From Deltaproteobacteria bacterium (lineage in GTDB: Bacteria; Myxococcota_A; Polyangia; Polyangiales; Houyiibacteriaceae): a DNA stretch of 64,000 nt. The position numbers and the translations under genes are program-made. The notes beneath the pieces were generated by a model, which saw only the letters and a program-made list of their open reading frames with translations, was not told the DNA's origin and ran no database searches. Position 1 is the first letter of the stretch; each line of letters opens with the position of its first letter. This document shows positions 32,366-48,736 of the stretch, piece after piece. The DNA is taken from assembly GCA_034670305.1 (NCBI GenBank), contig JAXMNT010000002.1, positions 128,001 to 192,000 of the forward strand, written 5' to 3'.

Positions 32366-34000
32366 TCAGATGCCGACGCTGATGCCGGCGGTGATGTCGA
32401 TGTTCAGGAGGAACGTCGGGAAGAGGATGTGGACCTCGGGCGTGACGAAGATGCCCACGTTCTTCATGAACCAGTAGCCCACCGTGCCGCCGATCTGGAC
32501 GCCGTTGAGACCGCTGATCATGTACGGCTCGTCGTCCCCGTTCTGACCCGGGTGCAACTGAATCTGGCCGTAGCTCGTGCCCACGAACGCGAGCGCTCGA
32601 ACCCCGACGTCTTCGGTGGGCTCGATGATGTTGGCACCGACCCGAAGTCCGATGAGGAAGTGGGAGAGCGATCCTTCGCCCGCGTCGATCTGGTAGCGGA
32701 AGGACGCGCCGATGATGAGCCGCTTGCCGAGGTTCACCTGCATGCTGAGCCGCGGGGCGTAGTTCACCAGGAGCCCGGGCTGCTCGAGCCGCACGCAGTA
32801 CTGGCTGTCCGGCAAGTCGCACAGGACGCCGTTGGAGTCTTCGGTGCCTCCCTGGACGTACGAGGCCGCTTGCGGCGCACCCGGATCGGCGGGCCCGGAG
32901 TCGGCGGGCTGGCCCGCGCTGGCGACGCCGAGGCCCAAGCTGAAGCCGACATCGAAGCTCACCATCCGGGCGAGTCCCGCGAAGAACCCTTCCCCGTCGT
33001 CTTCTTCGCCGCCTTCGCCCGCGATGCAGAAGTTGTCGTCGCACGCGAGGCCGCTGCGGCAGTCGGAGGTGCTCATGCAGGTGTCCCCGAGGCCAGCGTT
33101 GCCACCCGTCTCACACCCGGTCATGCCCGGCGGGCACTCGTTCTCGACGCACTGCGCCGGCGGCGCGTGGCCGGGGAGCGCGGGTGGAGGCTGGCTTCGG
33201 CTCGAGACGACCGGAACCGCGAACGGTTCCTCCGCGGTGCCGGCAAATCCCATCGGGCCACCATCGGAGTCGAACGCGACGATGTAGTACTCGATCCGCG
33301 GTGCCATGACTTCGGCACACGGCAGTTCGAGCCCGTACCCGCCACTCATCTCTTGCATGTCCATGCGGCGGAAATCGCGCATGCCGGGCGCCTTGTAGTA
33401 GACGACCAGGCTGCCGACCGGCGCCGACTCGGGCACCTCGACGAAGATCGGGAGCGCGGTGTTTCCGAGCTGCTCCGGCCACGGCTGGTGGGGAATCGCG
33501 CCGGGCCCACCACCACCGCCACCGCCGCCAGTGCCACCACCGCCGCCACCGCCACCGCCGCCAGTGCCACCACCGCCGCCACCGCCACCGCCGCCGCCGC
33601 CGCCGCCGCTACCCACGCGGCTTTGGGCCAGGCGGAAGACGGAGGAGATGTCGGGGCTGCTCGTCAGCGGGTCGAGCTGGACGTTCGGATCGGCCTCGAG
33701 CCCTTGCACGAAGTACTGCAAGCCCTGGCCGTTGTCGCCGAAGCCGCCGATGGAGACCACGCCGAGGTTGACGTAGGTCCGCCCCAACGGGGAGCCCGTC
33801 ACGTTGCCTCGTTCGGCCGCCTGAAGCGCCTCTTGAAGGAGCTCCATGGCCTGCTCGATTTCGAGGTTGTTGTAGGCCTCCATGCCCCGCCGGTTCAAGT
33901 CCAGCACGCGACGCAGCTGCGCCGAAGAAGGGCTTGCCCAGGTCAGGAGCATCATGAGGGCCGCTGCCCCCACCCACCACGATCGTCTCATCGAATCCAC
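32366..34000 (-). CDS. Exported protein: N-terminal TPR, poly-Gly linker, Cys-rich segment, C-terminal beta-strand (possible barrel) domain
   Basis: Signal peptide ending SPSSAQ; TPR-like; G-rich linker; ECPPGMTGC...C..TSDC.SGL.C....C; amphipathic C-terminal strands ending AGISVGI; start 34000 or 33991. Confidence 0.75.
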   Translation of the reverse strand: MDSMRRSWWVGAAALMMLLTWASPSSAQLRRVLDLNRRGMEAYNNLEIEQAMELLQEALQAAERGNVTGSPLGRTYVNLGVVSIGGFGDNGQGLQYFVQGLEADPNVQLDPLTSSPDISSVFRLAQSRVGSGGGGGGGGGGGGGGTGGGGGGGGGGTGGGGGGGGPGAIPHQPWPEQLGNTALPIFVEVPESAPVGSLVVYYKAPGMRDFRRMDMQEMSGGYGLELPCAEVMAPRIEYYIVAFDSDGGPMGFAGTAEEPFAVPVVSSRSQPPPALPGHAPPAQCVENECPPGMTGCETGGNAGLGDTCMSTSDCRSGLACDDNFCIAGEGGEEDDGEGFFAGLARMVSFDVGFSLGLGVASAGQPADSGPADPGAPQAASYVQGGTEDSNGVLCDLPDSQYCVRLEQPGLLVNYAPRLSMQVNLGKRLIIGASFRYQIDAGEGSLSHFLIGLRVGANIIEPTEDVGVRALAFVGTSYGQIQLHPGQNGDDEPYMISGLNGVQIGGTVGYWFMKNVGIFVTPEVHILFPTFLLNIDITAGISVGI

Positions 34001-34145
34001 CTCGAAGCTGTCGCTTCATAACAGGTTTTCGGGGCGAACGCCGAACGTTTGGACGAATCCGGTCCGGCGAGAAGCAAGCTGGGCCTGCGATTGTCGGTCG
34101 ATCGGGCGGTTCGCGAACCCACCCCGGGGGAGCGGGCCACGCCGG

Positions 34146-35324
34146 TCATGGGAGCTGGGATTGGCGGAACTGCTCGGCCGCCGCGTCGGTCCGTCGGAAC
34201 TCGACCCGGCGGTTCTCCGCACGGCCGGCCGGGGTGTTGTTCGTCTCGATGGGGCGGGTCTCGCCGTACCCCTGCGAAGTCATCCGACCCGGCGCGATGT
34301 TCTGCCGCAAGAGGTAGTCCCGGACCGCGCGGGCACGACGGTTCGAGAGGTCCATGTTGTAGTTGTCGCGTCCGCGGCTGTCCGTGTGGCCCTGGATCTC
34401 GACCGTGACGTCCGGGAAGTCCCGCAGGACCTGAGCCACCGTGTTCAGCAGCTCGAACGAATCGGGGAGGATGCGATCGCGGTTGGTGGCGAAATGCACC
34501 TTCTGAGTGATTCGAATCGCCGTCGCCGTGACCTGGACGTTCGCGTAGACGCGCGGGCAGCCGCGTTCGTCCGCAGGACCGGGCTCGTCCGGGCACTGGT
34601 CGTCCACGTCGAGGGTCGAGTCCCCGTCGTTGTCCGGGTCGGGGCAACCGTCTTCGTCCTGGAAGCCGTCGCGGTCCTCCGGTTCGATCACGCAGCGGTC
34701 GACGGTGTCGAGAACGCCGTCCAGATCGTCGTCTGGATCCGGACAGCCGTCCGCGTCCCCGCGCCCGTCCGCATCCTCGGGTTCGGTGACGCAGAGATCC
34801 CGCGCGTCGGGGATGCCGTCGCCATCGAGATCCTGGTCGTCGGGGCAGCCATCGGTGTCCTCGAACGCGTCGAAGTCCTCGGGCACCTCCGGGCAGGCGT
34901 CGTCTGGATCGAGGATGCCGTCCCCGTCCTGGTCGCCGGGCCTCGGCTCCGGCGCCCGTTCGGCCACGACCACGCCGCGAGGTGCGCAGCGATCCGCTGG
35001 GCTCAAGCGCAGCGCAGCGCGCGCGTTGGGCTCGGCGATCGAGTAGTGATCTTCTGCCCGCACCGGGTCGCCCTGCTGGAGTTCGTCCTCCGCGAAATCG
35101 AGGTGCGCCTTGGCAAGCGCCAACTCACGCGGGGCGCAGTGGTACGCGCCGTTGCGCTCGGCCTGCTCGACGACGTCGCGCAGGCCTCCGATGCGGCCGC
35201 GCACCATCGTGGCGCGCTGGCAGGCCCCGAGAAGGGCCGTGGTGCCCAGGAGCAGGCAAACCCACCCGAAGCGACTGCGTTTCGAACAGCCAACACCTCG
35301 CCCACCGAACGACGGCAGGGTCAC
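34146..35324 (-). CDS. OmpA-family lipoprotein with DUF4398-like N-terminus and TSP3-like Ca-binding repeats
   Basis: Lipobox LGAC; GA..CAP.ELALA; DxDGDG..D..D.CP repeats; IQGHTDSRG, NMDLS.RRA.AV, GYGE..P, NRRVEF. Confidence 0.93.
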   Translation of the reverse strand: MTLPSFGGRGVGCSKRSRFGWVCLLLGTTALLGACQRATMVRGRIGGLRDVVEQAERNGAYHCAPRELALAKAHLDFAEDELQQGDPVRAEDHYSIAEPNARAALRLSPADRCAPRGVVVAERAPEPRPGDQDGDGILDPDDACPEVPEDFDAFEDTDGCPDDQDLDGDGIPDARDLCVTEPEDADGRGDADGCPDPDDDLDGVLDTVDRCVIEPEDRDGFQDEDGCPDPDNDGDSTLDVDDQCPDEPGPADERGCPRVYANVQVTATAIRITQKVHFATNRDRILPDSFELLNTVAQVLRDFPDVTVEIQGHTDSRGRDNYNMDLSNRRARAVRDYLLRQNIAPGRMTSQGYGETRPIETNNTPAGRAENRRVEFRRTDAAAEQFRQSQLP

Positions 35325-35636
35325 TCAGCGACCCTGCCCACGCATGTTTCGGCGTGCGAGATCCCGAGCCTTCACCGCAAACTCTTCCGCGATCTTCGCG
35401 TGGCGAATCGCATCCTGGTACTCGGCCTCGCCCGCCTCTTCCCGCGCTTCCTGCAGGTGGGCTTCGGCGTAGTAGTACTCGTAGGGCGCATGCTCGGCCG
35501 CCCCGGCTTCCTCGGCCTCGTGGACCGAACGCGACGCGGGCAGCAAGTGGATGGTGTAGAAGGTCGGGCCACAACCGGCCGCCAACGTCCACAGCACCAC
35601 TGCCATCCATCGTGGGAGTCGCCGGATTGCCCGCAC
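35325..35636 (-). CDS. Small DUF4398-like lipoprotein
   Basis: Lipobox LAAGC; A...GA...APYEYY.AE.HL..AREE....EYQ.A; abuts the OmpA gene; start GTG 35636 or ATG 35606 (upstream ORF extension is repeat DNA). Confidence 0.85.
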   Translation of the reverse strand: MRAIRRLPRWMAVVLWTLAAGCGPTFYTIHLLPASRSVHEAEEAGAAEHAPYEYYYAEAHLQEAREEAGEAEYQDAIRHAKIAEEFAVKARDLARRNMRGQGR

Positions 35637-35642
35637 AGAGTA

Positions 35643-35672
35643 GACGTACTCGTCGGTCGAGAGCGCTGTCAA
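35643..35672 (-). promoter_or_regulatory. Candidate sigma70 promoter for the DUF4398-ompA operon
   Basis: Minus strand TTGACA-N18-TACGTC-N6-GTG; perfect -35, weak -10; would give a leaderless mRNA. Confidence 0.4.
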
Positions 35673-35965
35673 GCGCCGAAGACCGACGAAGTGCACAGCA
35701 CTTCGCGCGAAGCGAAGTTGGGGAGGAGGCCGGAGGGGCTTTGCCCCGCAGGCCGGAGGGGGATGCGCCCATCCCCCTCGGACAACAAACGTTGGGGAGG
35801 AGGCCGGAGGGGCTTTGCCCCGCAGGCCGGAGGGGGATGCGCCCATCCCCCTCGGACAACAAACGTTGGGGAGGAGGCCGGAGGGGCTTTGCCCCGCAGG
35901 CCGGAGGGGGATGCGCCCATCCCCCTCGGACAACAAACGGTCGAGAGCGCTGTCAAGCGCCGAAG
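35654..35965. repeat. Three identical 74-bp tandem units (35717-35790, 35791-35864, 35865-35938) bracketed by an exact 28-bp direct repeat (35654-35681, 35938-35965)
   Basis: Unit GTTGGGGAGGAGGCCGGAGGGGCTTTGCCCCGCAGGCCGGAGGGGGATGCGCCCATCCCCCTCGGACAACAAAC; flank CGGTCGAGAGCGCTGTCAAGCGCCGAAG. Confidence 0.97.
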
Positions 35966-36025
35966 CCCGCGGCGCCAGTGAATACCGCCCCACCGGGCAC
36001 GTGGTCGTACTATGCTCGACCCCCG

Positions 36026-36580
36026 GTGCCGCTGCCGACCCTCATCTGCCTGGTCTTTGCCACGGGCATTGCTTCCGCCCTCGCTGGGCGCGTCGAACTG
36101 CGTGTCAGTCCAAGGCCGTCCCTTCTGACCACCAGTTTCGGGGCATTCGCGGTCTTCGCCGCGCTCGTGGCGATCCCGATCGGCTGCTACTTCTACGTCT
36201 TCCACGGCGACTGGTTTCTGCTCTACACGATCGACGTGCGGCGAATTCCCTCCGCGTTGGCGCTCGTGGGATTCGTGCTGCTCGGCGGCATCGGCGCGCT
36301 GGGCTTCGCGGTGGGTGCGAGCATGGTGCGGGGACAACGCGACACCCTTGGCGGCGCGCTCGTCGGCCTGAGCGCGCTGGCGGGCATCGCCGTGATCCTC
36401 GTCGCCAAAGACCGCCTCGCGCTCGTTGGCACCTTCGGCCAGTACGAAGGCGGCTTCGGACTGCACTCCTTCGGCACCGGACCACTCGTGCAAGGCACGA
36501 TCGTGATGAGCGCGATCCTGTTCGTCGGGATCGTCTTCTTGCTCTACCGCCTGTTGCTGAGCGGCCGCCGCGTCAGTTGA
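36026..36580 (+). CDS. Integral membrane protein of unknown function
   Basis: About five hydrophobic segments; YFYVFHGDWFLLY motif; typical codon bias; GTG start inferred. Confidence 0.8.
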   Translation: MPLPTLICLVFATGIASALAGRVELRVSPRPSLLTTSFGAFAVFAALVAIPIGCYFYVFHGDWFLLYTIDVRRIPSALALVGFVLLGGIGALGFAVGASMVRGQRDTLGGALVGLSALAGIAVILVAKDRLALVGTFGQYEGGFGLHSFGTGPLVQGTIVMSAILFVGIVFLLYRLLLSGRRVS

Positions 36581-37682
36581 CGTCAGGCTTGTCTTCGTAC
36601 CAGTCCACGAACGCCCTCACCTCGCTCGCGTGCTGCCAGCGGTCACCGACCTGCCCACGCAGGTGGTCTGTCGGATCGTAGGAGTACAGGCGCTCGAGAT
36701 GTGGGAGCGCATCCGCGTGGTGGATCCGGTCGCCCGCGAGGATGACGCCGATGCGCCGCAACTGCTTCATCTTCGCGAGCGGTCGCAGATCGACGGTCAA
36801 CTCCGTTGCCCAACTGGTCAGCCAGAGTTCCTCGACACCAAGGCGAGAGAGCCCTTCGAGATCCCCGACATAGCCAACCTCGAGCGTCTTCAGGTTCGGG
36901 TGATGGGCCAGAACTTCGAGTGCCTCCGGGTCGGGCATCGTGTCGCCCAACACGAGCACCTCCAGGGTCGGCGAGACGGCTTTGGCGTGTGCGCCGGTGA
37001 AGTCGCTGTCGCCCAACGATGGGACGAGGTGGAGCCGCCGGAGGGACGCCATGGACTGAATCCGACTGGCGGACGGCACCGCCTCTCCCAAGACGTTCAA
37101 CTCTTCGAGCGTCTCCCAGCCCACCGAATCGCCGAGCGTCGGTACGTTCCGGCCCACGACGCGCAACGCGCGGAGCGACGACGGCAACCCAACAGCACTG
37201 CCCGGTTCAACCCTGTCGATCGACAATCTACGCAGCGAACTCGACTGCTCGAGGCACGCGCCACCGAGGACAGCCGTGCAGGCCCGAAGCACCAAGGTCT
37301 CGAGGTTCGGGAACTCGTGCAGCCCCTCGACTGAGATGGGGATGCGCTTCTTCTTCGTCAGCTGTCCGTCGATCGCGAGCGCAACCACTTGGTCTCGGAG
37401 CGTAGCGCCCACCGTACCTGCGGGCGCCGCGGCGATCAGACTCCGCATCGCCTGGCGGCGGTAGACCTGCAGGCGTGGTGACTTGAAGGCGCCCGTCGAT
37501 TGCAGACGCGCTTCGGTGATGTGCGGGTTCGAGTACTGGGTCCCCTCGAGCAGCGCGTCGAAGAGTGCAGGGTCCGCAAGTCCGGCGCAGAGTGCGGCGC
37601 CCTGCTCGATCTGCGCCGCGTCCTTGCTGAGCAGCAGCTTCTCCAGCTGCTTGCGCTGCTTTTTGTCCGTGGCAGCGCTCAG
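36573..37682 (-). CDS. Leucine-rich-repeat-like protein; start codon unresolved
   Basis: Repeated L..L.L/V motifs (FPNLETLVL, SSLRRLSI, SLRALRV, TLEELNV, SLRRLHL, PNLKTLEV); ORF open to 37808 but overlaps the upstream gene. Confidence 0.6.
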   Translation of the reverse strand: MSAATDKKQRKQLEKLLLSKDAAQIEQGAALCAGLADPALFDALLEGTQYSNPHITEARLQSTGAFKSPRLQVYRRQAMRSLIAAAPAGTVGATLRDQVVALAIDGQLTKKKRIPISVEGLHEFPNLETLVLRACTAVLGGACLEQSSSLRRLSIDRVEPGSAVGLPSSLRALRVVGRNVPTLGDSVGWETLEELNVLGEAVPSASRIQSMASLRRLHLVPSLGDSDFTGAHAKAVSPTLEVLVLGDTMPDPEALEVLAHHPNLKTLEVGYVGDLEGLSRLGVEELWLTSWATELTVDLRPLAKMKQLRRIGVILAGDRIHHADALPHLERLYSYDPTDHLRGQVGDRWQHASEVRAFVDWYEDKPDVN

Positions 37683-40600
37683 CGGTCGATTCCGATCGCC
37701 AATGCGTCGTCGTCCGCGGCCTGGGTTTGCGACGCCGAGGTGAGGATGTCGATGTTCACCGCCGCGTCGAGTTCGCGGTTGGTGATCGAGCCATGACAGG
37801 TGCCGCACAGTCCGTTGAAGAACCGGCGCGGGAACGATTGGGTGATCCGCTCGCCCGGGTAGAACTGCATCTGCTCTCGCTGGACCCGTTCACCGGTGAA
37901 CGCGTCGCCCTCCCCGAACATCAGCGCGCCGCCGTCTCCGTCGGTCGGCTGCAAGAGGACCGGCACGCCGCCTGGAAGTCGGATGCGGAGTGAGCTGTCG
38001 CCGTGGGTCGGGGCCCAGCCGAGCTCGTCGTAGCGCCGGTACACCATGCCGAACGCGTCCGTCACGACGTCGCCCGAGACTTCGCCAAACGAAGTCGTGC
38101 CGACAGGGGGCGGCTGCGGTTCGAACACCCGGAGTCCAGCCACCGCAGGATCGATCGGACGGCCGAGGCGCGCGTTCGCGAACAGGAGCGTGTCGAGCAA
38201 CCCCATGTCGAGGATGTGCACGTCCGCGTCGGGCGAATCGAAGAACTGCGACGCGCCGTTGGGCTCGTCGACTCGGGATGTGAAGATCTCGGCCGGCGCG
38301 GTCCGGCCGTACACGGCGACCGCATCCACGTTCGCCATGCCGGCGTCCCCACCGATGGAGCGCACGTTGCCCGTGTCCGGATCGACTTCGCACAATTCGA
38401 ACGCGTAGGGCCCTGCCCGCAGATCGGTCGCGCCGGGATCGCACGAGGCCAGGATGCGCCCGCTGGGAAGCGGCGCCACCGAGCGGTACACGCCTGTGGT
38501 GCCGGGACCGGCCGGTACGTCGGGGATGCGGCCGAACGCACCCGGCGCGGGCAGGTACATCGAGTGGATGTAGTCGCGGTCCATCGGCATGCGGTCGTCC
38601 TGGTCGGGGCCGATGGAGCGGTTCAGCACGACGATCGTGCCGACACCGTCGGTGGCGTCGAGCGGGCCGCCGATGAAGGCGAAGTTGCGGTCGGCGAGTT
38701 CCACCACGCCGGTCGCGGCCGGGAACCCGACGCTGTCGCGCTGCGCGAAGAGCGGGTGGTAGTCGCCACCGTCCAGGTTCTGACGGCGCAGCGCGAGTTG
38801 GTGAAAGTCCGGCTCGCGTTTCTCCGCGGTGAACACCAGGCGACCATCACCCATGAACGAAGGCGCGACCTCCTGGTTGAGCAGGAAGGTCAGTTCGCGG
38901 ACGCCCCCGTCCTCGCGCACGAAGAGGTTGGCGTTCGGCTGCATGGCGGCCGGCGTTCGGGTCGGGCCGGTGTAGCTCACGCGGCCCGAGAGATTGCCAC
39001 GGGTGCTCGCGAACACGAGGCGGCCATCGGGCGCAAACGCCGGATCGAAGTCGTGGATCAGCACACCGTTCGCTTCGGTCGCGCCCGCGTCCACGCCAGG
39101 GACAGGTTCGCAAGCGGTGCCATCCGCGTTCATCCACCACAGCCGAAGCGGTTCCGATGCCGAAGCACGGGCTGCAAACGCCACGCGCGTTCCGTCCCAG
39201 CTCACCGCCGGGCGCCGGATGTCCGCGCCGGGCGAGACGCCGCAGCCCCCGAGCAGACTCGTCGAGCCGGCCAGTGAGAGGGCTCCGTCCGCGGCCACGG
39301 TGGCGACGGCTTGTCGAAGGTCGGCGCCGCCGCGGAACGTGTCGAAGTCGCGGACGTCTCCGATGCCCGGCGGACGCGCGACGTAGACGACGGAGTCGAC
39401 GACCATCGCTTCGGGAAGCACCTCGCCGGACGCGATGGCCTCCTCGCGTTCGATCGCGTGCCAGCGGGCCAACACGCAGTACGCGGGGACCTCGTTCAGG
39501 TCGCCGGTGTCGGCATCGATCCCAGCGCAGGCCGCCGCGGTGGCGGGGTTGAGTGCGCCGCCCGAGCCGAAGTCTTCGAGGAGCGAGCCGCCTCGGTGGG
39601 CGATGCCACTGGCGCCACTGATCTGCGTGGCGGGGTAGAGGTTCTTGGCGACGATGCGGCTCGCGTTCGGATCCGGTGATTCCACCGCGAGCATCAAACG
39701 GGACATCTCGTAGTTGCGGCGGGTGGCGATGCGCGAGAACACCCCCTGGTCGCCGCCCCGGAGCCGCAGGTCGTGAAACATCGCGGGCGAGTGGCAGCCA
39801 AGAAACATGCAGCCCTTGCGCGCCAGCACCGGTTGCACCCGGTTGGCGAAGAACCGGAGCCCCGGATCGGGATCGGCATCGAGCAGCGAGTCGGGTGTGC
39901 GGGTCTCGAGGTCCTCGGCCCAGCGACGCAGGGTCTGGTAGTCGGCGTCTTCGGTGTTCGCGAAGATGTTGCCACCCTCGTGGAAGCTGCCGCCGGCCTG
40001 CGCGCTCAGCGGACGACGCAGCAGACCCGAAGTCGATGCGGGCGAGGTCACATGCGACAGCGCGACGTAGTAGTTCCACTGCAGTTGGGCGTCGTTGTTG
40101 CCGCAGGTGAGGTGCAGATCCGCGAACCCGCTCCCGTGGCAGCTCCCGCCGGCGCAGCGTTCGCGAAAGATGGGCGACACTTCGTTGCGGAAGATTTGGT
40201 ACGAGAGCGTGTCGGTGGGCACGACCGACGGATCGAATCCGTGCGGTGTCGTGATCTCCTCGGTGCAGGCACCACGGTTGGTCGCGAGCGACTCGTCCGG
40301 CACACCGGTCCGCTGGGAACTTTCGTCGATCCAACGTTTGATCTCGGAGTACCCGCTGGACCCGGTCTCGATGATGCTGCCCGCGTTGTGCCGGACGTCG
40401 GTCACCAGACGCGCGATCCGCGTCCCGCTGACCGGATCCGCATCCCAGACTTCGATCGGCAGGTCGACGTCGTCGCCCGCCTTGAGCAGCAGGAGCCCAA
40501 CCGGATACGGACCATACGAAGGAAGCACATCCGAGCGACGCATGAGCGCGTCGAACGAACTCAAGTCGAGGTTGCCGGTCGCGGCGCCGTCCAGATCGAT

Positions 40601-40843
40601 GTGACAGCCGTTGGTCTGCAGCGCGCACCCCACCGCGAACACCGGCTGGATGCGGTCGTCGTAGAAGGAGCCCGCCGGCGGCGGCACGTCCTCACAGCCG
40701 ACCAGTGGCAGTACGGCCGCGACCAACGCGCATTGCAGCACGACGCGAAGCCCCCGCGCGACACCGAACGGGGACGCGGTTCGGTGGAGGGCGCTGCGGG
40801 CGCTGGCGAGGTCGAAGGCCTGCTCGATCCGGGGCCGATTCAT
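37679..40843 (-). CDS. Multiheme c-type lipoprotein with TolB-like propeller and hydrazine-synthase-alpha-like C-terminal domain
   Basis: Lipobox LVGC; three F...(I/V).P.(F/L)...C-X4/6-CH domains; PAVSWDG..VAF, DFDPAFAPDGRLVFASTR, PSFMGDGR; DSS....P.GVP..LQ..D...QFYPGE...CGTCH. Confidence 0.8.
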   Translation of the reverse strand: MNRPRIEQAFDLASARSALHRTASPFGVARGLRVVLQCALVAAVLPLVGCEDVPPPAGSFYDDRIQPVFAVGCALQTNGCHIDLDGAATGNLDLSSFDALMRRSDVLPSYGPYPVGLLLLKAGDDVDLPIEVWDADPVSGTRIARLVTDVRHNAGSIIETGSSGYSEIKRWIDESSQRTGVPDESLATNRGACTEEITTPHGFDPSVVPTDTLSYQIFRNEVSPIFRERCAGGSCHGSGFADLHLTCGNNDAQLQWNYYVALSHVTSPASTSGLLRRPLSAQAGGSFHEGGNIFANTEDADYQTLRRWAEDLETRTPDSLLDADPDPGLRFFANRVQPVLARKGCMFLGCHSPAMFHDLRLRGGDQGVFSRIATRRNYEMSRLMLAVESPDPNASRIVAKNLYPATQISGASGIAHRGGSLLEDFGSGGALNPATAAACAGIDADTGDLNEVPAYCVLARWHAIEREEAIASGEVLPEAMVVDSVVYVARPPGIGDVRDFDTFRGGADLRQAVATVAADGALSLAGSTSLLGGCGVSPGADIRRPAVSWDGTRVAFAARASASEPLRLWWMNADGTACEPVPGVDAGATEANGVLIHDFDPAFAPDGRLVFASTRGNLSGRVSYTGPTRTPAAMQPNANLFVREDGGVRELTFLLNQEVAPSFMGDGRLVFTAEKREPDFHQLALRRQNLDGGDYHPLFAQRDSVGFPAATGVVELADRNFAFIGGPLDATDGVGTIVVLNRSIGPDQDDRMPMDRDYIHSMYLPAPGAFGRIPDVPAGPGTTGVYRSVAPLPSGRILASCDPGATDLRAGPYAFELCEVDPDTGNVRSIGGDAGMANVDAVAVYGRTAPAEIFTSRVDEPNGASQFFDSPDADVHILDMGLLDTLLFANARLGRPIDPAVAGLRVFEPQPPPVGTTSFGEVSGDVVTDAFGMVYRRYDELGWAPTHGDSSLRIRLPGGVPVLLQPTDGDGGALMFGEGDAFTGERVQREQMQFYPGERITQSFPRRFFNGLCGTCHGSITNRELDAAVNIDILTSASQTQAADDDALAIGIDR

Positions 40844-40897
40844 AGGGGGAGTTTCGCACGTTCGCCCGCCCTGATGCGACCCCAACCCGCACAGGGG

Positions 40898-42727
40898 TCA
40901 TTCTTCCGGGGTGAGCCGGGCGTCGAGCAACTTCTCGAGTTCTTCGCGGGTGACGCCGAGTCGGCTCGCCACCTGCGAGGCAAGGCTCGTCGGGGCCACG
41001 CCTGGGACGAACTGGTAGGTGGGCGTCTCGCCGTCGAGCTCGACCTGAAGGAACTCGAGCCGCTCCACGAGCGCGTCCTGTTCGAGTGCGCGCGCGGCGT
41101 CGAGAAAGTGGGTGGTGAGAAACACTTGCGGGCGCGCGCGAGGCAGCAGCGAGAGCACCAGCTCGAAGATGGCGATGCCTTCGCCCGGGTTGGTGCCGGA
41201 GCAGAGCTCGTCCAAGATCACGAGTGCGCCAGGTCGAAGCGTCTCGAAGAGCCGCCGCACCCGCCGCAGCTCCGTGCCGAGCCGCCCCTCGCTCTGGTCC
41301 GCGCGACCGGTCTCGATGAGCGACAGAAACATGCCCGGCGCGGGCACGAGCCGCGCCGACGCCGCTGGTACGTAGAACCCGCCCTGCCCGAGCAACTGCG
41401 CGATCCCGATCGCCTGAAGCAAGCGCGTCTTGCCGCCGGAGTTCGGACCGGTGACCAGCACGAGCCCATCCGGATGTTTGGGCGCGAGGTCGCAGGGCAC
41501 CGGCGGTACCCGTTGCAGGAACAACAGCGGATTGAAGAGCCGTTTCATCGCGGCCGGTTTGTCGGAGGACATCTCTGCCAGACACGTCTGCAGCCCCTGC
41601 TGCCGCGCGACGGTTCGAAATCCGAGCGCCGCCAGGTAGACCTCGAGCTGGCCCACCAGTCGAAAACACGGAAGCACGAGATCTTCGAGGTCCTCGAACA
41701 CTTCGTCGATGACCTTGAGCAGGACTTCGTTCTCGCCGTAGCGGTAGCCGCGGATCCACGCGCGCAGCCGGGTGAAGAAACGCGACCACGCCGAACGCAC
41801 GTGTGGGTTGAGGGTGTTCTCCTTGGCGCGGAGCAACTCGAAGTCGCGAATCTTTCCGTCCGCGGCCAGCACCAGGCGCACTTCGACCGTCGCCAAGTTC
41901 GATTCGAAATCGAGGATCTGTTCGAGCCGCTGCACGACGCCACTGCCTCGGACGGATTCCCCGAGCTCCACGATGCGCCGAAGCGCGGAGGTCGAGTTGG
42001 CAAGCGCAGCGGACTCGTCGAGAAACGTCTTGAGGGTGGTGAGAACATCGATCTTTCGACGCACCGTCTCGTCCGGCAGCATCGCGCGTTCATCGAGCAG
42101 CGTGCGCAGCCGACGCAGCGAGAGGTACACCCGCTCGACCGAGCCACGGAGCTCGGCGTTTGACTCGAGTTCCCGAAGCACCCCCTGCCGGAGGGCGACG
42201 TCCCGCGCATCGATCGGAGGATGGGTGAGCACCCGTTCCAGGTGACCGAGGCTGGGTTGAAACCGTTGTTCGTCGATGACGATCGGGAAGGCCTCGGACA
42301 ACAGCTCCCGCAGGAACAGGCCGTCCGAGAAGGTGTCGGGGTCGAACTCAGAGGGGGCGAGTTTGCCCTCCTCGACGACCAACTCGAGCAGGCCTCCCGC
42401 GTCGCCGCTCTCGAACGCGAAGCGGAGCGCCTGCCGCAACACCTCGACGCCTTCCACCGCGAGGGGCGTGTGGTGCAACACATCCACCCAGCCCTCGGTC
42501 AGAGGCTTCGGAACGAGTGGTGGAACACCTTGCTCTTGGACCGAAGGTCCCCTCTCCCGTTCCGCCGCCTTCGCGCGGGCCTTCCGGCGGTCGCGTTCGC
42601 GGGGGGAACGCCAACTGGTCGAGGTCTTCGAGAACTCCACAAAAACACCTTCGCACATTCCCGGCCCCGAGGGGCCTGGCTCGCTTCGCGAAACCGGGGG
42701 CACCACAAACAACGAGGGCTCCGACAT
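40898..42727 (-). CDS. MutS-related ATPase (domain V with helical N-terminal part; no mismatch-recognition or Smr domain seen)
   Basis: LFNPLL, TGPNSGGKT (Walker A), EGRLGTEL, LVILDELCSGTNP.EG, TTHF, YQFVPG....S.A..VA..LG; start uncertain. Confidence 0.88.
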   Translation of the reverse strand: MSEPSLFVVPPVSRSEPGPSGPGMCEGVFVEFSKTSTSWRSPRERDRRKARAKAAERERGPSVQEQGVPPLVPKPLTEGWVDVLHHTPLAVEGVEVLRQALRFAFESGDAGGLLELVVEEGKLAPSEFDPDTFSDGLFLRELLSEAFPIVIDEQRFQPSLGHLERVLTHPPIDARDVALRQGVLRELESNAELRGSVERVYLSLRRLRTLLDERAMLPDETVRRKIDVLTTLKTFLDESAALANSTSALRRIVELGESVRGSGVVQRLEQILDFESNLATVEVRLVLAADGKIRDFELLRAKENTLNPHVRSAWSRFFTRLRAWIRGYRYGENEVLLKVIDEVFEDLEDLVLPCFRLVGQLEVYLAALGFRTVARQQGLQTCLAEMSSDKPAAMKRLFNPLLFLQRVPPVPCDLAPKHPDGLVLVTGPNSGGKTRLLQAIGIAQLLGQGGFYVPAASARLVPAPGMFLSLIETGRADQSEGRLGTELRRVRRLFETLRPGALVILDELCSGTNPGEGIAIFELVLSLLPRARPQVFLTTHFLDAARALEQDALVERLEFLQVELDGETPTYQFVPGVAPTSLASQVASRLGVTREELEKLLDARLTPEE

Positions 42728-42813
42728 CCGTCGAAGCCCTCGGTTCCCCCTGTTGGACCGAACTGTCGGTCAGAACATCGGGTGTGGTTGGGCACGCGGA
42801 CGCGCCCTCCCAC

Positions 42814-43704
42814 TCAGCGCATCTGAATCGCTACGTTGATGGCGTCCCGAACGATCGAGACCTCCTCGACGGTGGACGCTTCGCGAAGCGCCGCGCGGGC
42901 GTCCGCTCCACCGACGCGGCCAAGGGCCCACGCGGCGGCCTGGCGAACCAGGTTGTCGCTGTCGCTTCGGAGCATGCCAGCCAGGGCCGGCACCGCTTCG
43001 GCGACACGCTTCGCTCCGAGCAGACGGGCCGAGCGCATACGGATGTACGCGTCGTCGTCGCCGAGCGTGGTCATGAGCGCGTCGTCTTCCCGGAAGAAGT
43101 TGACGAGCAGGACCTGGTCAAGCGCGGCACGCCGCACTTCGTTCGCGGTGTCACCGAGACCGGCCGCGATCGTGGCGTTGCCGCCCGGGTGGTTGAGCCG
43201 ACCGAGGGCTCGAATCACCGCTTCGCGAACCACCGGTTCGCCATCCGTTTCGAACGCCGTCACGAGGGGCGTGAGGCCACCCGCGTCGAGGAACTCACCG
43301 ATGGCGCTGGCTGCCCGAGCCCGTCGCGTCGCGTCCGCATCCGTCGCCAGGACAGCCTTCATGCGGTTCATGATGGCGCCGATGGCGAACGGGCGGTGAC
43401 GAAGCCACCAAGCCGAGATGCGGCGGGTCTCCGCGTTCGAGTCCTCGAGCAGCTTCTGCTCGAGGAGCGGCACGCAGGCGTGACACTCGACGCGCTCGCC
43501 GTACTCCAGCATCGCTTCGAGCGTGGTCGGCGCGGCGCTTCGGATGGCGTTCATGAGCTGCGCCTGGGTGGGCGCGCCCGTACCGGGGCTCAGTTCACCC
43601 CGCGCACGGTCGTGCGGGATCTCCTGAGCTTGGGTGGAGGTGCTGAGACCAGCGACCGCGAGCATCGCGGCGAGTCCCAGCAATGTTGCGTTTCGCTTGT
43701 TCAT
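42814..43704 (-). CDS. Secreted HEAT-repeat protein with a CxxC motif
   Basis: Signal peptide MNKRNATLLGLAAMLAVAGLSTSTQAQ; ECHAC; repeated VR..A..ALG HEAT units. Confidence 0.85.
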   Translation of the reverse strand: MNKRNATLLGLAAMLAVAGLSTSTQAQEIPHDRARGELSPGTGAPTQAQLMNAIRSAAPTTLEAMLEYGERVECHACVPLLEQKLLEDSNAETRRISAWWLRHRPFAIGAIMNRMKAVLATDADATRRARAASAIGEFLDAGGLTPLVTAFETDGEPVVREAVIRALGRLNHPGGNATIAAGLGDTANEVRRAALDQVLLVNFFREDDALMTTLGDDDAYIRMRSARLLGAKRVAEAVPALAGMLRSDSDNLVRQAAAWALGRVGGADARAALREASTVEEVSIVRDAINVAIQMR

Positions 43705-43752
43705 CGTTTGCACCTTGTCGTTCGTGGTTGAGGTTGAGGTTCGAAGCATGGC

Positions 43753-46014
43753 TCAGTCCTCGTACTCGACGGCACCCCAGGCAGCGGCACCTTCAACGTT
43801 CTTGCGTGACCAGAACTGCCCACCGAGGTCGGCCATCTGGATGAGGATCAAACGATCCTCGCGGGAGAGGGTCGTGCCAGCGACATCCTCGAGGTGACCG
43901 ACACCGTCGAAGGCCCAGCGGCTCGGGTCCGCTTGCGAGTTGGCGTTGACGACTTCGATGAGACGCGAGGTGCGCGCGAGACCGGGCGTGACCCACTCGG
44001 GCGGCACATCGCCGACTGCGATGGAGTCGCCCATCATGGCCGACGGGTAGAGCAGCGAGACGTAGGACGCCGGGTACTCCGCGACTTCGTTCTCGTAGTA
44101 GGCGGTGACCGGGACGTCGGTGAGCAAGAGGTACGGAATGTCGTACTCGAGCATCTCGCCGTCCATGGTGGTGACCTGAACCTGGTAGGTGCGGCCCGCG
44201 TACATGTCCATCTCGCCGCCATCGTGGCAGGAGATGCAGTTGTCGTTGAAGACGTCCTGCACGTTGCGCGCGCTCGGTGCGCCGATCCACGGCAGCTCCG
44301 TGCGGTCCGGGATGGCCAGGTCGAACTCTTCCGGTCCGGCCTGCTGCGCAAGCGTGGTGGCACCGACGCGGGGAAGCACCTGACCGGTGCGATCCTCGTG
44401 GCAGCCGCCGCAGCGTCGCTCTTCACCCGGCATCGCCTGGATCCAGAGCATCTGGTTCCGGATGGCCATGCCGTACTCGTCGAGCGCCTGAAGGTGGTAC
44501 GGAAGCCGCGAGGGCACTTCCGCTTCCCAGGAGCCGTCTTCGTAGACCGTGGCTTCACCCACGATGGCGCCGCCTTCGTGCATGGTGAGACCGAACTCGC
44601 GGAAGCCGCCGCCGATCTCCGTCGAGAAGCCTTCGATGATGCGGACCGCGACGGTCTCGTCGAGTGCCGCGTCGAGCGTCATGCCGTCGAGCGAAGCCCC
44701 GCGCACCGTCTCGTTGAGACCGGTGATGGTGACGTCGATCGAGCCGAGGATGGACGGCGTGGAGGGGTCGGGCGCCGGCTCGAGCACACCGGCGTGAACC
44801 GGGGGGATGTCGCGGGGCGCGATCGGAATCGCGTAGGTGTCCCAGGTGTCGGGCTCGTCGAACACGAGCGTGCGGCGACGGGTCTCGGGGTCCCAGAGGT
44901 AGATGCCGAAGTCCGGCGCCGTCTCTGCGAGCTCGTTGCGCTCGTTCACGTCACCGTCGGCCCAAGCCACCAGGAACTGACCGTTGTCGAGCGGGAACGG
45001 ACGACGGTAGCGGCCCACACCGGAGGGCGGGCTCTCTTCGTCGCGCGGCACGTTGGGCGTGAGCACTTCGAAGGTCGCGTTCTGCTCGTCGAGCACCACA
45101 CCGGCCACTCCGCCACCCGCGCGGGCGTCGAGGTGAACCATGGCACCGGCCTGAATCGTTCCGCGACGGCTCGTCGCGATGCCGATGTACTGGCCTTCCG
45201 AGATCTCGTGGAACTGCACGAGGCTGTTGGACGGCTTGCCGCCCGTGCCACCGAGACCGACCATCTGGGTGCAGTCGGTGTTCATCGTCATCAGCTTCAC
45301 GTCGTTGACGGGGCCAAGGTGCTCCCAGCGAGAGAAGCCGACGCGGCCATCGCTCATGAGGAACGGGTCGGCCGAGTGGCTGAGGTTCTGCGCGCAGAGC
45401 CGACGGTCGGCGTCGCCGATCATCAGGCTCACGGTGGCGATCTGAGTGACCACGCGAGAGTGGTTGTACTCGTCCGCGCGGGTGCCCATTTCGGTGTAGG
45501 GCTGGTTGGTCACGAACGCGACGCGGTCGCCCGGTACGAAGACCGGTTTGACGTCGTGCCAGTCACCGAACGTGAGCTGGCGAATGTTCGCCGGCCCTTC
45601 CACGTTCGCCACATACAGGTGGTAGTGGCTGTCGGCGGCGTGGCGCATCGCGAACACGACCTGGGAGCCATCGAAGCTCAGGTCGATGCCGCTGATGTCG
45701 ACACCGTCGATCGGCGAACCATCGGTCCACGTCTCCGTGAGGTTCCGAAGTTCACCGGTTGGGGTGGGTGGTGTCAGCGTGTACACGCCGCCACCGGGCA
45801 CGTACCGCAAGTAGTCGATGGTTTGGTTCGAGCCGCCCGCAACGTTGTGGTCACCATCTGGGGTGACGAACGCGCGACGCACAAACACCATCGCCTGAAC
45901 ACCAGGCAAAACACTCTCGCCAGGGTCACCGTTCCCGCAACCTGGCAAAGCCAGGCTAGGTACCGCGAGCCCCACCGTGAGCGCGATCATCATTATTCGA
46001 GAGCGATAACTCAT
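43753..46014 (-). CDS. Hydrazine synthase alpha-subunit-related diheme lipoprotein (beta-propeller + HZS-alpha middle domain + cytochrome c)
   Basis: GGAGG RBS before ATG 46014; lipobox LPGC; LSFDG..VVFAM, RQLT, D..P..., DEY, P..MSDGR..FSRWEH; DGSW.AEVP...PY.LQALD..GMA......W....PGE.R.CGGCHE; second CISCH. Confidence 0.85.
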   Translation of the reverse strand: MSYRSRIMMIALTVGLAVPSLALPGCGNGDPGESVLPGVQAMVFVRRAFVTPDGDHNVAGGSNQTIDYLRYVPGGGVYTLTPPTPTGELRNLTETWTDGSPIDGVDISGIDLSFDGSQVVFAMRHAADSHYHLYVANVEGPANIRQLTFGDWHDVKPVFVPGDRVAFVTNQPYTEMGTRADEYNHSRVVTQIATVSLMIGDADRRLCAQNLSHSADPFLMSDGRVGFSRWEHLGPVNDVKLMTMNTDCTQMVGLGGTGGKPSNSLVQFHEISEGQYIGIATSRRGTIQAGAMVHLDARAGGGVAGVVLDEQNATFEVLTPNVPRDEESPPSGVGRYRRPFPLDNGQFLVAWADGDVNERNELAETAPDFGIYLWDPETRRRTLVFDEPDTWDTYAIPIAPRDIPPVHAGVLEPAPDPSTPSILGSIDVTITGLNETVRGASLDGMTLDAALDETVAVRIIEGFSTEIGGGFREFGLTMHEGGAIVGEATVYEDGSWEAEVPSRLPYHLQALDEYGMAIRNQMLWIQAMPGEERRCGGCHEDRTGQVLPRVGATTLAQQAGPEEFDLAIPDRTELPWIGAPSARNVQDVFNDNCISCHDGGEMDMYAGRTYQVQVTTMDGEMLEYDIPYLLLTDVPVTAYYENEVAEYPASYVSLLYPSAMMGDSIAVGDVPPEWVTPGLARTSRLIEVVNANSQADPSRWAFDGVGHLEDVAGTTLSREDRLILIQMADLGGQFWSRKNVEGAAAWGAVEYED

Positions 46015-46219
46015 TTGGTCCTCCGACATCGGAGGGACACTGTGCAAAGTTCGATCCCAACCACTTTTCTCAATGATTACAGACACTACCGCATGTCCAA
46101 ATTGGGGTTTCGCCCCCCCAGTCTGACCTTTGAGGGGGCTCTGGCCCCCTGGTTTTCCTCCATGTTTTTCGGGGGATCGGGGAACACGAACCGGCCCGAG
46201 ACCAGTGTACAGTCCCGCC

Positions 46220-48736
46220 ATGACGCGCCTGTTCCGCCACGCCCTCTCTGCAGTCCTCCTCGCCGCTTCGGTCGGCTGCGGTCCCGCCATCACGGTCCAC
46301 CACCACGAACCAGAACGGCAGCCCGAACCCGTCGCGGCTTCACCGACGGTGTTCCCGGATGGATGGCAACCTGCGGCACCCCCGGTGCGCGACGGTGCGT
46401 CGGGCGCGCTCGGTGGACCGGTGCCCCGTGGCCTGCGCGGTCAGATCTGGTCGATCGAGTGGTCCCCGCACGGTGATGTCGTGGCGGTCACCACCAGTGA
46501 GAAGGAGGTTGCCCTCATCGACGTCCGGACCGGTGTGATCCGCGCCTACAAGCGGGTGATGGTGCGACGCGAAGACGTGGTGAACCTCGTCGGGTTCGAC
46601 CCGACCGGGACCCGGCTGGTGCTGCACGCGTACGACTACGAGCGTGGGCACATCGTCGTCTGGGACTTGCACGAAGACGAGTTCCACACCGTCCAGGTTC
46701 AGGAGTCCCAAGAAGCCCAGGAAGCGCCGTTCATCTGCGGCGCGGGGATCATCACGCAGGACGGAATCCACAACCGCTACATCCCGTTCGAGGGAGATGC
46801 CGGAAGTTTTCCCGTCGGGACTCCAGTGGGCATGCTGTCTCAGGGCACCCAGTGCTTGCTCCAGCGGGGCGGGGAGACGATGCGCGTGAGCGTGGCCGGC
46901 GAGACGCTTGGCACGTACGTCGGCAGCTTGCTCTCGGTGCACCCGACCGGCGCGGCGTTCATCGTCCGCGATGGCGAGACGTTGCACGTCCACCGCTCGG
47001 ACGGGACCGAGGTGGGTGCGATCCGAATCACGGACGGCACGTTGATGCGCGCGGACTGGACCCGCAGCGCGCTCTTCTTGGATGTGCGACCCGCCATCCC
47101 CGAGGCCGCGGTGGGCGAGACGCCCGGCGACCGGCCCGCACCCTACCGCGCCGAGTACGACAACACGCTCGCGGAAGTGGCGCGGTACGAAATCCCAGGC
47201 GACTCGTTCGGACTGGTCGGCCACGCGAGCCTCCACTCCGAGACCGCCGAAGGTCAGTTCACCGTGCGGCCGCTGACCCCGCTGGGCGAAGCCGCGTCCG
47301 AACCCACCCACCGACTTCTCGAGGCGTGGGCCGAGGACGAGGACGTGCCGTACGACGAGATGACCGGCGAAGAGATCCGAGTGGGGCGGTACACCGAAGG
47401 ACCTGCCGGAACCTTCTTGGTGGCGCGTGGCCGCGAGCTCTACTTCTTGAACCAGGCGTTCGAGATCGTCGGCACGAGCACGCCCGCGATGGGAGGCGAG
47501 AGTTCCATCTGGGGCACCCGCGACGATCCGAGTGGCGGTTATACCTGGGCGCGCGCGGGCACCGAGTACTGGGGTCCCGAAGGCGCGGTGCGGTTCACAT
47601 GCGACCAAGGAAACCCGCTCGAGGTGGAAGGCCTGCGCGCGTGGGCGAACGACTACCAGCTGTGCGTCGATGGCCGCGAGCCACGCCGCCTGCAATCCGG
47701 CGCGGAGAACGTGGAGCGCCGCATCATCGGCACCCGCGACAACGATCTGCTCGTCGCCAACATCGGTGCCGCCGACCCGCCGTCGATTCAGATCTGGGAT
47801 CCTGTGCGGTGGCGGGCCAAGCGCACCATCCTGTTGCCGCCGGGCACCACCGTCGAGTGCTACGACGACTACTGCCCGCTGCGGTACTTCCCCCTCGGTC
47901 GGGGCGGGCTCGTCGTCGATGACAACCAGGCGTACTGGGATAGTGGACGCGGCCGATTGCAGGTGCGGGAAAACCTGCCCATCAACAACATTCAAGCGAG
48001 GCCCACCGTCATCCTGATGGGCGGTCACGGCTTCTCGTTGCTGGATGCGCGCGGCCGGGTCGCGATGCAGCACGACGACGCGTCGATGCCCGTGCTCTCC
48101 GCCGATGGCTCGACGGTCGCCTACTGGGACAGCACCGCCTCCCAGGCCGTGGTCGCCGCGGTACCCGGCGGAGAGATGCGCATGCAAGCGACCCTCGCGG
48201 AAGGGGAACCGGTCCGCATCCTGCTCGAGGGAGACCTCGTGGCCTTTCGTCACGAGCAACAGCAGGCCTGGACCATCTGGCATGTGCCCAGCAACTCGCA
48301 GCGGGTGCGGCTCGGGACCACGGACACGTTCGCGCTTCTCGGTGGCAGCCGGATCGCCGTTTGCAGCGACGACCAACTGACGCTTCGCAGCGGGCTCGAC
48401 GGTTCGGTGACCGATCAACTCGGGGGCTGTGCGCTCGCCGACGACTTGAGCACCATCGAGAACGGCCATGTCCTCGTCGTGCGTTCGCGGACCCGCGCGA
48501 CGTTCGTTCGGTTGAGCGACGGTGCGCGGATCGAAGTCGGCAACGTCCGTGGCCCGAACCCTTCCGCGTTCGCGTTCCAGGGCGCGCGTGGGTGGCTCGA
48601 CGCCAACGCGGGCGCGTCGCTCCGATGGCGTGGTCCGGGGCCGATCGCGACCGCGACCATGGAAGAAGATCCCACGCCGCATCACGACCCGGACTTCTTG
48701 CGCGCGTTCTTCGCCCCGCCCCCGACCGGCGGGTGA
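46220..48736 (+). CDS. Large beta-propeller (WD40-like) lipoprotein
   Basis: Lipobox SVGC; IWSIEWSPHG, FDPTG, VWDL, IQIWD, LSADG, WTIW beta-rich repeats. Confidence 0.7.
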   Translation: MTRLFRHALSAVLLAASVGCGPAITVHHHEPERQPEPVAASPTVFPDGWQPAAPPVRDGASGALGGPVPRGLRGQIWSIEWSPHGDVVAVTTSEKEVALIDVRTGVIRAYKRVMVRREDVVNLVGFDPTGTRLVLHAYDYERGHIVVWDLHEDEFHTVQVQESQEAQEAPFICGAGIITQDGIHNRYIPFEGDAGSFPVGTPVGMLSQGTQCLLQRGGETMRVSVAGETLGTYVGSLLSVHPTGAAFIVRDGETLHVHRSDGTEVGAIRITDGTLMRADWTRSALFLDVRPAIPEAAVGETPGDRPAPYRAEYDNTLAEVARYEIPGDSFGLVGHASLHSETAEGQFTVRPLTPLGEAASEPTHRLLEAWAEDEDVPYDEMTGEEIRVGRYTEGPAGTFLVARGRELYFLNQAFEIVGTSTPAMGGESSIWGTRDDPSGGYTWARAGTEYWGPEGAVRFTCDQGNPLEVEGLRAWANDYQLCVDGREPRRLQSGAENVERRIIGTRDNDLLVANIGAADPPSIQIWDPVRWRAKRTILLPPGTTVECYDDYCPLRYFPLGRGGLVVDDNQAYWDSGRGRLQVRENLPINNIQARPTVILMGGHGFSLLDARGRVAMQHDDASMPVLSADGSTVAYWDSTASQAVVAAVPGGEMRMQATLAEGEPVRILLEGDLVAFRHEQQQAWTIWHVPSNSQRVRLGTTDTFALLGGSRIAVCSDDQLTLRSGLDGSVTDQLGGCALADDLSTIENGHVLVVRSRTRATFVRLSDGARIEVGNVRGPNPSAFAFQGARGWLDANAGASLRWRGPGPIATATMEEDPTPHHDPDFLRAFFAPPPTGG

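Follow-up and report, generated by a model that had tools for sequence, protein, structure and literature searches.

What would proteins built like hydrazine synthase's alpha subunit (HzsA) be doing in a bacterium of the Polyangiales, and which of the genes around them belong with them? The question is raised by a 64,000-nucleotide stretch, hereafter the window, of contig JAXMNT010000002.1 (positions 128,001 to 192,000, assembly GCA_034670305.1; Deltaproteobacteria bacterium, Houyiibacteriaceae). Five minus-strand genes, numbered g1 to g5 in the direction of transcription (Table 1), had been read in an earlier note as one surface redox module made of two HzsA-like heme lipoproteins (g1, g4), a HEAT protein (g2), a MutS-type ATPase (g3) and a leucine-rich repeat (LRR) protein (g5). 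The module proves to be smaller: g1, g2 and g4 form a conserved operon across several families of one class (Polyangia), and they are a conserved uncharacterised variant within the HzsA-fold family, to which the other two genes do not belong. The products of this trio probably make up a single lipid-anchored, six-heme c-type oxidoreductase of the cell envelope, whose genes would be read from a sigma54 promoter controlled by an enhancer-binding protein of their own.

The case for a three-gene unit comes from two surveys, whose counts include kin and are thus descriptions rather than tests. The best 80 of 213 loci found with a g2 profile include records named Polyangiaceae, Sandaracinaceae, Labilithrix and Sorangium; g1 adjoins g2 in all 80, and g4 adjoins g2 in 71 of the 73 in which its position could be tested (7 are cut off), the other two having an insert of about 2.3–2.4 kb. 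A sample of the phylum (301 genomes, g1 loci fetched from 24) gives the same picture, with g2 after g1 wherever the contig permits and all three genes adjacent in 21/24. Full-strength orthologues of g1 and g4 occur in the same 25/301 genomes, all of the window's class, even where g4 has been relocated, and near-full-length g2 orthologues are present in 45 of 151 class genomes (four partial HEAT matches dropped). The expected co-occurrence of the three exported genes is thereby borne out. The five-gene module is not: the 80 trio loci contain no match to g3, to g5 or to the divergent gene upstream, neither g3 between g2 and g4 nor g5 behind g4 is seen in any of the 24 phylum-sample genomes, and orthologues of g3 are placed elsewhere in other genomes. 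Within the window's own family, g2 lies directly before g4 in 16 loci, g3 and g5 in none of them; one genus has a different gene there. As they are absent from 80/80 trio loci, g3 and g5 are passengers, lineage-specific insertions with no part in the complex. In one locus (L034, genome G059), where g2 is split between two frames and g4 does not adjoin it, the operon looks decayed or mis-assembled.

The first gene carries the full architecture of HzsA. Its product has the lipobox cysteine (Cys26) and both heme motifs of the earlier description, CGGCH and CISCH, and it scores 59 bits against the Pfam family HZS_alpha (cut-off 26.6). Its predicted model (predicted local distance difference test, pLDDT, 82) matches HzsA of Ca. 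Kuenenia stuttgartiensis (5C2V) end to end, with Z 33.9, a template-modelling (TM) score of 0.63 and a root-mean-square deviation (rmsd) of 3.4 Å over 577 residues; the next-best match, TolB, reaches Z 26.1. A profile of g1 aligns with 5C2V chain A at E 5.8e-25, and His707, conserved in 97/97 orthologues, aligns with HzsA His772, the bis-His ligand of heme alpha-II in the C-terminal cytochrome domain. Directly after its heme-I CxxCH, g1 reads E-x-R; the corresponding residues of HzsA are YGSY and include Tyr591, the proximal ligand of heme alpha-I. Further conserved polar motifs lie in the propeller and middle domain (DEY, NxSH, WEH, EGFSxE). Two propeller cysteines, C207 and C248, are found in 73/97 orthologues, none being invariant, and the HzsA zinc-site region (Cys303, His587) did not align.

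The second lipoprotein, g4, shares the propeller and the middle domain. Its CGTCH was correctly seen before, but three further atypical motifs near the N-terminus (CX6CH, CX4CH and CX4CH) had been missed. The four-motif pattern is present in 96/98 orthologues, with spacings of 8-4-4-2 in 69 and 6-4-4-2 in 27, and each atypical motif has a candidate distal histidine downstream (H152, H288, H416; 98/98). These motifs, a weak likeness to the heme-II domain of HzsA and Atlas clusters, which read as generic cytochrome c only, suggest that the three N-terminal modules bind heme c. The Ccm system is able to mature widened heme motifs, and the genome encodes CcmF- and CcmC-type maturation genes. The g4 model (pLDDT 73) matches residues 43–661 of 5C2V with Z 32.7 and an rmsd of 3.4 Å over 462 residues, a whole-model search that is no test of the N-terminal modules. 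Pfam identifies PD40 in g4; HZS_alpha does not match g4 itself and its orthologues score below threshold, whereas profile–profile and structure comparison do match. E990 and DYHP are its conserved polar features. HzsA is thus the top structural match of both lipoproteins, each combining propeller, middle domain and heme-I CxxCH in one fold, and the search for the HZS-alpha domain and PD40 repeats proposed beforehand was rewarded for g1 and g4, respectively. The two proteins had been called paralogues; homology across the propeller and middle domain holds (profile comparison probability 99.9), though at 22% identity they are old homologues and no recent duplicate pair.

The helical partner of the two lipoproteins is g2, a HEAT solenoid by Pfam, with a signal peptide read from the sequence and no lipobox. 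Its invariant residues are E66, E69, C73, C76, W98 and W99, with the CxxC kept in 113/113 orthologues. The motif ECHAC noted earlier is present, but its histidine is a leucine in 69/113; the motif is therefore a CxxC and not a heme motif, and a c-type CxxCH is indeed absent, the histidine being neither conserved nor placed after the second cysteine. Atlas clusters for g2 are HEAT clusters only, and there are weak matches to HEAT bilin lyases. When g1 (38–742) and g2 (30–295) were modelled together, the one pair for which the proposed multimer check was done, the complex scored 0.86 against 0.00 for the best of 3 controls, with at least 67% of contacts in common between runs and a partner pLDDT of at least 86. 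The score mark is passed by 116/157 solved complexes and 2/215 mismatched pairs, a benchmark that applies only roughly because custom alignments were used. Since the solved hydrazine synthase complex has no HEAT subunit, memory of a similar complex is unlikely. The prediction supports binding of g2 to g1, with modelled contacts on the propeller blades, the heme-II domain and two loops, 175–188 and 465–478, that are poorly ordered when g1 is modelled by itself.

How close, then, is the trio to hydrazine synthase itself? A six-bladed propeller and a heme-I middle domain are common to g1, g4 and HzsA (5C2V chain A, PF18582, NF052339), and the C-terminal cytochrome domain of HzsA has its equivalent in g1 and is absent from g4, where heme II is replaced by three N-terminal atypical hemes. 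Unlike HzsA, g1 and g4 are lipoproteins, at 17–21% identity and without Tyr591; a tyrosine within four residues after the heme-I CxxCH occurs in none of the rows tallied. Where hydrazine synthase has beta and gamma, the trio has a HEAT protein alongside two chains of the alpha type. Against the NCBIfam hydrazine synthase equivalog NF052339 the two lipoproteins score 56 and 18.8 bits for a cut-off of 800, and no linked hzsB or hzsC was found among the flanking genes scanned. As it lacks both Tyr591 and a linked HzsBC gene, the trio is not a hydrazine synthase, in agreement with the earlier exclusion of an anammox role. The accompanying statement that no HzsB/C-like gene is present stands for the locus, but not for the genome, where three unlinked propeller plus di-heme genes weakly resemble HzsC/CCP. 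The HAO/HDH profile PF13447 matched nothing in the genome, and its control also matched nowhere.

Relatives have been described elsewhere. The accessible text of PMC12758564 reports non-anammox HzsA homologues without Tyr591, linked to beta-gamma fusions and, in that text, none with confirmed function; in its clades I–IV (Planctomycetota and Desulfobacterota, non-anammox hosts) Tyr591 is lost to a gap of two residues that follows CxxCH, as in the trio. They adjoin fused beta-gamma genes and clade I is without His772, whereas the trio lacks a linked beta-gamma gene and His772 is retained in g1. Polyangia account for at least eight rows of the supplementary HZS-A BLAST table of that paper and are not discussed in its accessible parts, myxobacteria being unnamed in the main text. 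A wider family with other substrates is proposed in the available portion of PMC10732223, and what is accessible of bioRxiv 10.64898/2026.02.25.707902 has the anammox enzyme as its subject. No paper describing the trio operon was found in a literature search that left out most subscription journals. In other classes of the Myxococcota, single-gene proteins resemble g4 in joining CX4-5CH cytochrome modules to a propeller and HZS middle domain, but they have two N-terminal modules rather than three, often a C-terminal heme, and lie beside beta-gamma-like, ApbE or DUF1501 genes; neither g1 nor g2 is present in the four loci read. Three such loci (L058, L060, L061) adjoin ApbE, thioredoxin, DUF3570, propeller plus di-heme fusions or DUF1549/DUF1501 genes. 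The window's genome also encodes a third HZS_alpha protein (L059, G000:C46:10424-14002), whose heme domain is of the PSCyt1 type and which ends in a weak MYXO-CTERM tail.

Upstream of g1, the trio promoter appears to be of the sigma54 type with upstream activator sites. Scored against the consensus (GG-N10-GC, 12 scored positions, mark at least 9/12), a site lies 5′ of g1 in 70 of 75 surveyed loci, as against 11% of shuffles and 4/75 on the opposite strand, and in 14/24 phylum-sample loci; 5′ of g4 it reaches the mark in 5/21 loci, none at 10. A sigma70 scan gave 0 sites. The two GGGG-N-CCCC palindromes lie 5′ of the sigma54 site, mostly 31–35 or 21–23 bp apart, and the A+T-rich tract downstream of them is one that we take to resemble a site for integration host factor (IHF). 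With a matrix built from other genomes, the window's promoter ranks first of 4379 candidate sites in this genome. The second-ranked site belongs to a DUF1592/DUF1552 operon, and 2/13 DUF1592 (PSD/PSCyt3) cytochrome genes of this genome carry a sigma54-like site with paired palindromes (G000:C58:3301 and G000:C29 about 28430, both on the minus strand), a hint that these genes and the trio may share one activator. In other genomes, 0/13 homologues score above 10.5 for this promoter link, and DUF1552 is present in only 31/45 trio genomes. A strict version of the promoter pattern gave 3 matches in 5 genomes, one of them (G270) just upstream of g1. Elsewhere in the window's genome, a strong palindrome pair, an A+T tract and a near-sigma54 site precede an uncharacterised gene (G000:C38:49203, minus strand), and a palindrome pair lies 5′ of a gene whose sequence reads like a sigma70-family factor (G000:C7:214069), where a sigma54 site was not found.

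Table 1. Genes and sequence elements of the locus (window positions).
Feature	Coordinates	Strand	Description or basis
Distal GGGG-N-CCCC palindrome	46134..46149	-	Candidate enhancer-protein site; GGG-N8-CCC in 67/70 promoter regions vs 13.2 in shuffles
Proximal palindrome	46103..46119	-	Candidate enhancer-protein site; sequence conservation
A+T-rich tract	46065..46079	-	Presumed IHF-site-like; partly conserved A/T positions 5′ of sigma54 site
Sigma54-type -24/-12 promoter site	46043..46058	-	9/12 consensus positions in window
g1	43753..46014	-	753-aa lipoprotein with all domains of HzsA: propeller of six blades, heme-I CxxCH (535-539) in the middle domain, CxxCH (593-597) and His707 in the cytochrome domain
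g2	42814..43704	-	Exported HEAT/PBS-lyase-type solenoid, invariant E-x-x-E-x-x-x-CxxC and WW; alternative start 43749
Terminator-like hairpin	42713..42742	-	g2-g3 spacer, outside conserved module; hairpin scan
REP-like genome-wide repeat, ~30 bp	42672..42701	.	g2-g3 spacer; 79 other blastn hits
g3	40898..42640	-	Cytoplasmic MutS domain III/V ATPase, no mismatch-binding or Smr domain; inserted passenger separating g2 from g4; inferred GTG start at 42640, first ATG 42727
g4	37679..40843	-	Lipoprotein of ~1054 aa (start uncertain) with a propeller, CxxCH (1013-1017) in an HzsA-type middle domain, and three modules resembling cytochromes (CX6CH+H152, CX4CH+H288, CX4CH+H416)
g5	36573..37682	-	One unit of LRR-like repeat family, no canonical start; passenger

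How could such a complex work? Heme I of both g1 and g4 would sit under the propeller as in HzsA, with the ordinary CxxCH histidine as proximal ligand and an open distal side, and would be catalytic, while electrons would reach or leave it through heme II of g1 and the three g4 hemes with bis-His ligation. In HzsA, heme alpha-II lies beyond electron-transfer range of the other hemes (accessible part of PMC12607021), which makes it reasonable to infer a wire in a partner protein, such as the g4 triheme. The predicted role of g2 is to clamp g1 over the propeller, middle domain and heme-II domain, where it would fill the structural place of HzsB. The complex is most likely periplasmic, the periplasm being at least as likely as the surface. 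As for the chemistry, most likely a small oxygen or nitrogen oxide is turned over in a redox reaction at a ferric/ferrous heme, and hydrazine is not synthesised; within this scheme peroxide or O2 is a possible, tentatively proposed substrate, and NO or hydroxylamine a somewhat doubtful one. Several observations weigh against the proposal. In this lineage the operon is broken up by a hairpin and two inserted genes; g4 is away from g2 in 3/24 genomes, and five loci of the window's family hold stand-alone second g4-like copies. The g4 model is poor in its N-terminal module (pLDDT below 50 across much of 1–105), the predicted g1–g2 interface is no better conserved than the two proteins are elsewhere (0.65 vs 0.65; 0.58 vs 0.56), and conserved M478, H213, H232 or H507 of g1 could ligate a heme whose distal site we only infer to be open.

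These doubts give room to other explanations. If all six hemes were six-coordinate, the complex would be a non-catalytic conduit or capacitor passing electrons between periplasmic or outer-membrane partners, an unlikely reading, in whose favour 4/6 hemes look bis-His and the single-gene relatives of g4 in other classes adjoin ApbE, thioredoxin, DUF3570 and cytochrome b/Fe-S genes; the many invariant polar residues of the propellers and middle domains nevertheless suit an active site, and the operon has no porin gene. CcmH/NrfF-type CxxC proteins and HEAT bilin lyases are models for another role of g2, that of a dedicated maturation factor (a thiol reductant or a heme-attachment chaperone for CX4CH and CX6-8CH) rather than a permanent subunit. 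The invariant CxxC, the bilin lyase matches and the atypical g4 motifs are in its favour, but the model places g2 over a large folded surface of g1, which has canonical motifs only, and g4-like CX4CH/CX5CH genes of other classes are without a g2 match in four fetched loci, which leaves it rather improbable.

Could the missing subunits simply be encoded elsewhere? In that case g1 and g4 would join an unlinked HzsBC-like (propeller plus di-heme) protein in N–N or N–O coupling akin to hydrazine synthase, and the best of the genome's three fusions does match 5C2V chain C at E 7.5e-17, while g4-like genes of other classes adjoin such fusions. The absence of Tyr591 speaks against it, as does an HzsC-like match (E<=1e-8) in only 16/45 g2-positive genomes, on which count an obligate HzsBC partner was rejected; the coupling itself seems very improbable. 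The original five-gene module, if the ATPase is taken for a reactivase like KamC and the LRR protein for one more subunit, is scarcely credible: related strains do retain the g2–g3 and g4–g5 joins and g3 has a weak match to KamC (86 of 300 bits), but the absence of both genes from the surveyed trio loci and the changing neighbours of g3 oppose it, and g3, having no signal peptide, belongs to another compartment than the trio.

A lipid-anchored oxidoreductase encoded by g1, g2 and g4 thus remains our preferred reading, and its interest lies in what the HzsA fold did before anammox. As far as the accessible text of PMC12758564 goes, function is known for no HzsA homologue outside anammox bacteria. 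Since the trio is conserved, has a clear promoter signature and occurs in a cultured species, Sandaracinus amylolyticus, which carries a g1 orthologue, that earlier role becomes testable by knockout and assay. A bolder and improbable version would see an alpha-alpha′ heme enzyme in which the CxxC-HEAT clamp replaces beta and gamma and a triheme wire (CX4CH/CX6-8CH) feeds electrons to N–O or N–N bond chemistry in myxobacteria; if true, it would offer a genetically tractable model of the fold's ancestral reaction. The trio also supplies natural CX8CH and CX6CH motifs for studies of cytochrome c maturation, and a sigma54 enhancer motif.

As to the locus itself, the five open reading frames are indeed co-oriented and look coding, with a G+C content at third codon positions of 0.79–0.85. 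A contig from run X1, which may be the source of this DNA, covers 35936–46400 with zero differences from the window, and two further studies supply contigs from related strains that bridge g2–g3 (X5) and g4–g5 (X6); because these contigs span or bridge the joins, the arrangement is not an assembly error. The close spacing noticed earlier (gaps of 48, 86 and 54 bp) holds only nominally, since the g2–g3 spacer contains a hairpin and a repeat and the starts of g3 and g5 are uncertain. With 6 terminator-like hairpins found against 5.1 expected, the hairpin is weak on its own; the repeat is 14 nt shorter in a related strain's contig. Because both elements occupy the spacer, g3 probably starts at the GTG given in Table 1.

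The product of g3 has Walker A/B motifs, a Pfam MutS_V domain and a weak MutS_III, features of which Walker A/B and MutS_V are common to MutS2 and KamC-type MutS domain V ATPases. It differs from these in falling below all NCBIfam cut-offs (106 of 400 bits for mutS2), and neither an Smr domain nor MutS domains I–II were matched in it, as MutS2 or MutS1 membership would demand. It belongs to a conserved, separate family of stand-alone MutS III/V ATPases of the Polyangiales with an Arg-rich N-terminus: 48 of 101 genomes from the order have an orthologue (42–60% identity), its neighbours vary, and in the 14 loci read it never adjoins g1 or g4. In other orders, 9 loci (L048–L056) have a MutS gene 5′ of g1, which was considered as g3 and rejected, the two scanned being canonical five-domain MutS. 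For g5, all Pfam LRR matches are below threshold, and its repeat family is found in 7/151 class genomes, mostly inside frames of 600–1700 aa. From the g4 stop to 37448 there is no ATG, GTG or TTG; the start of g5 may be a CTG that overlaps this stop (37679–37682, as in ATGA coupling), or the gene may be 5′-truncated.

Beyond g5, a cluster of tandem 74-bp repeats at 35400–36000 belongs to a genome-wide, REP-like family (103 blastn hits). The DUF4398, OmpA-TSP3 (TraB-like, below cut-off) and TPR genes at 32366–35720 come after the trio in several same-family relatives.

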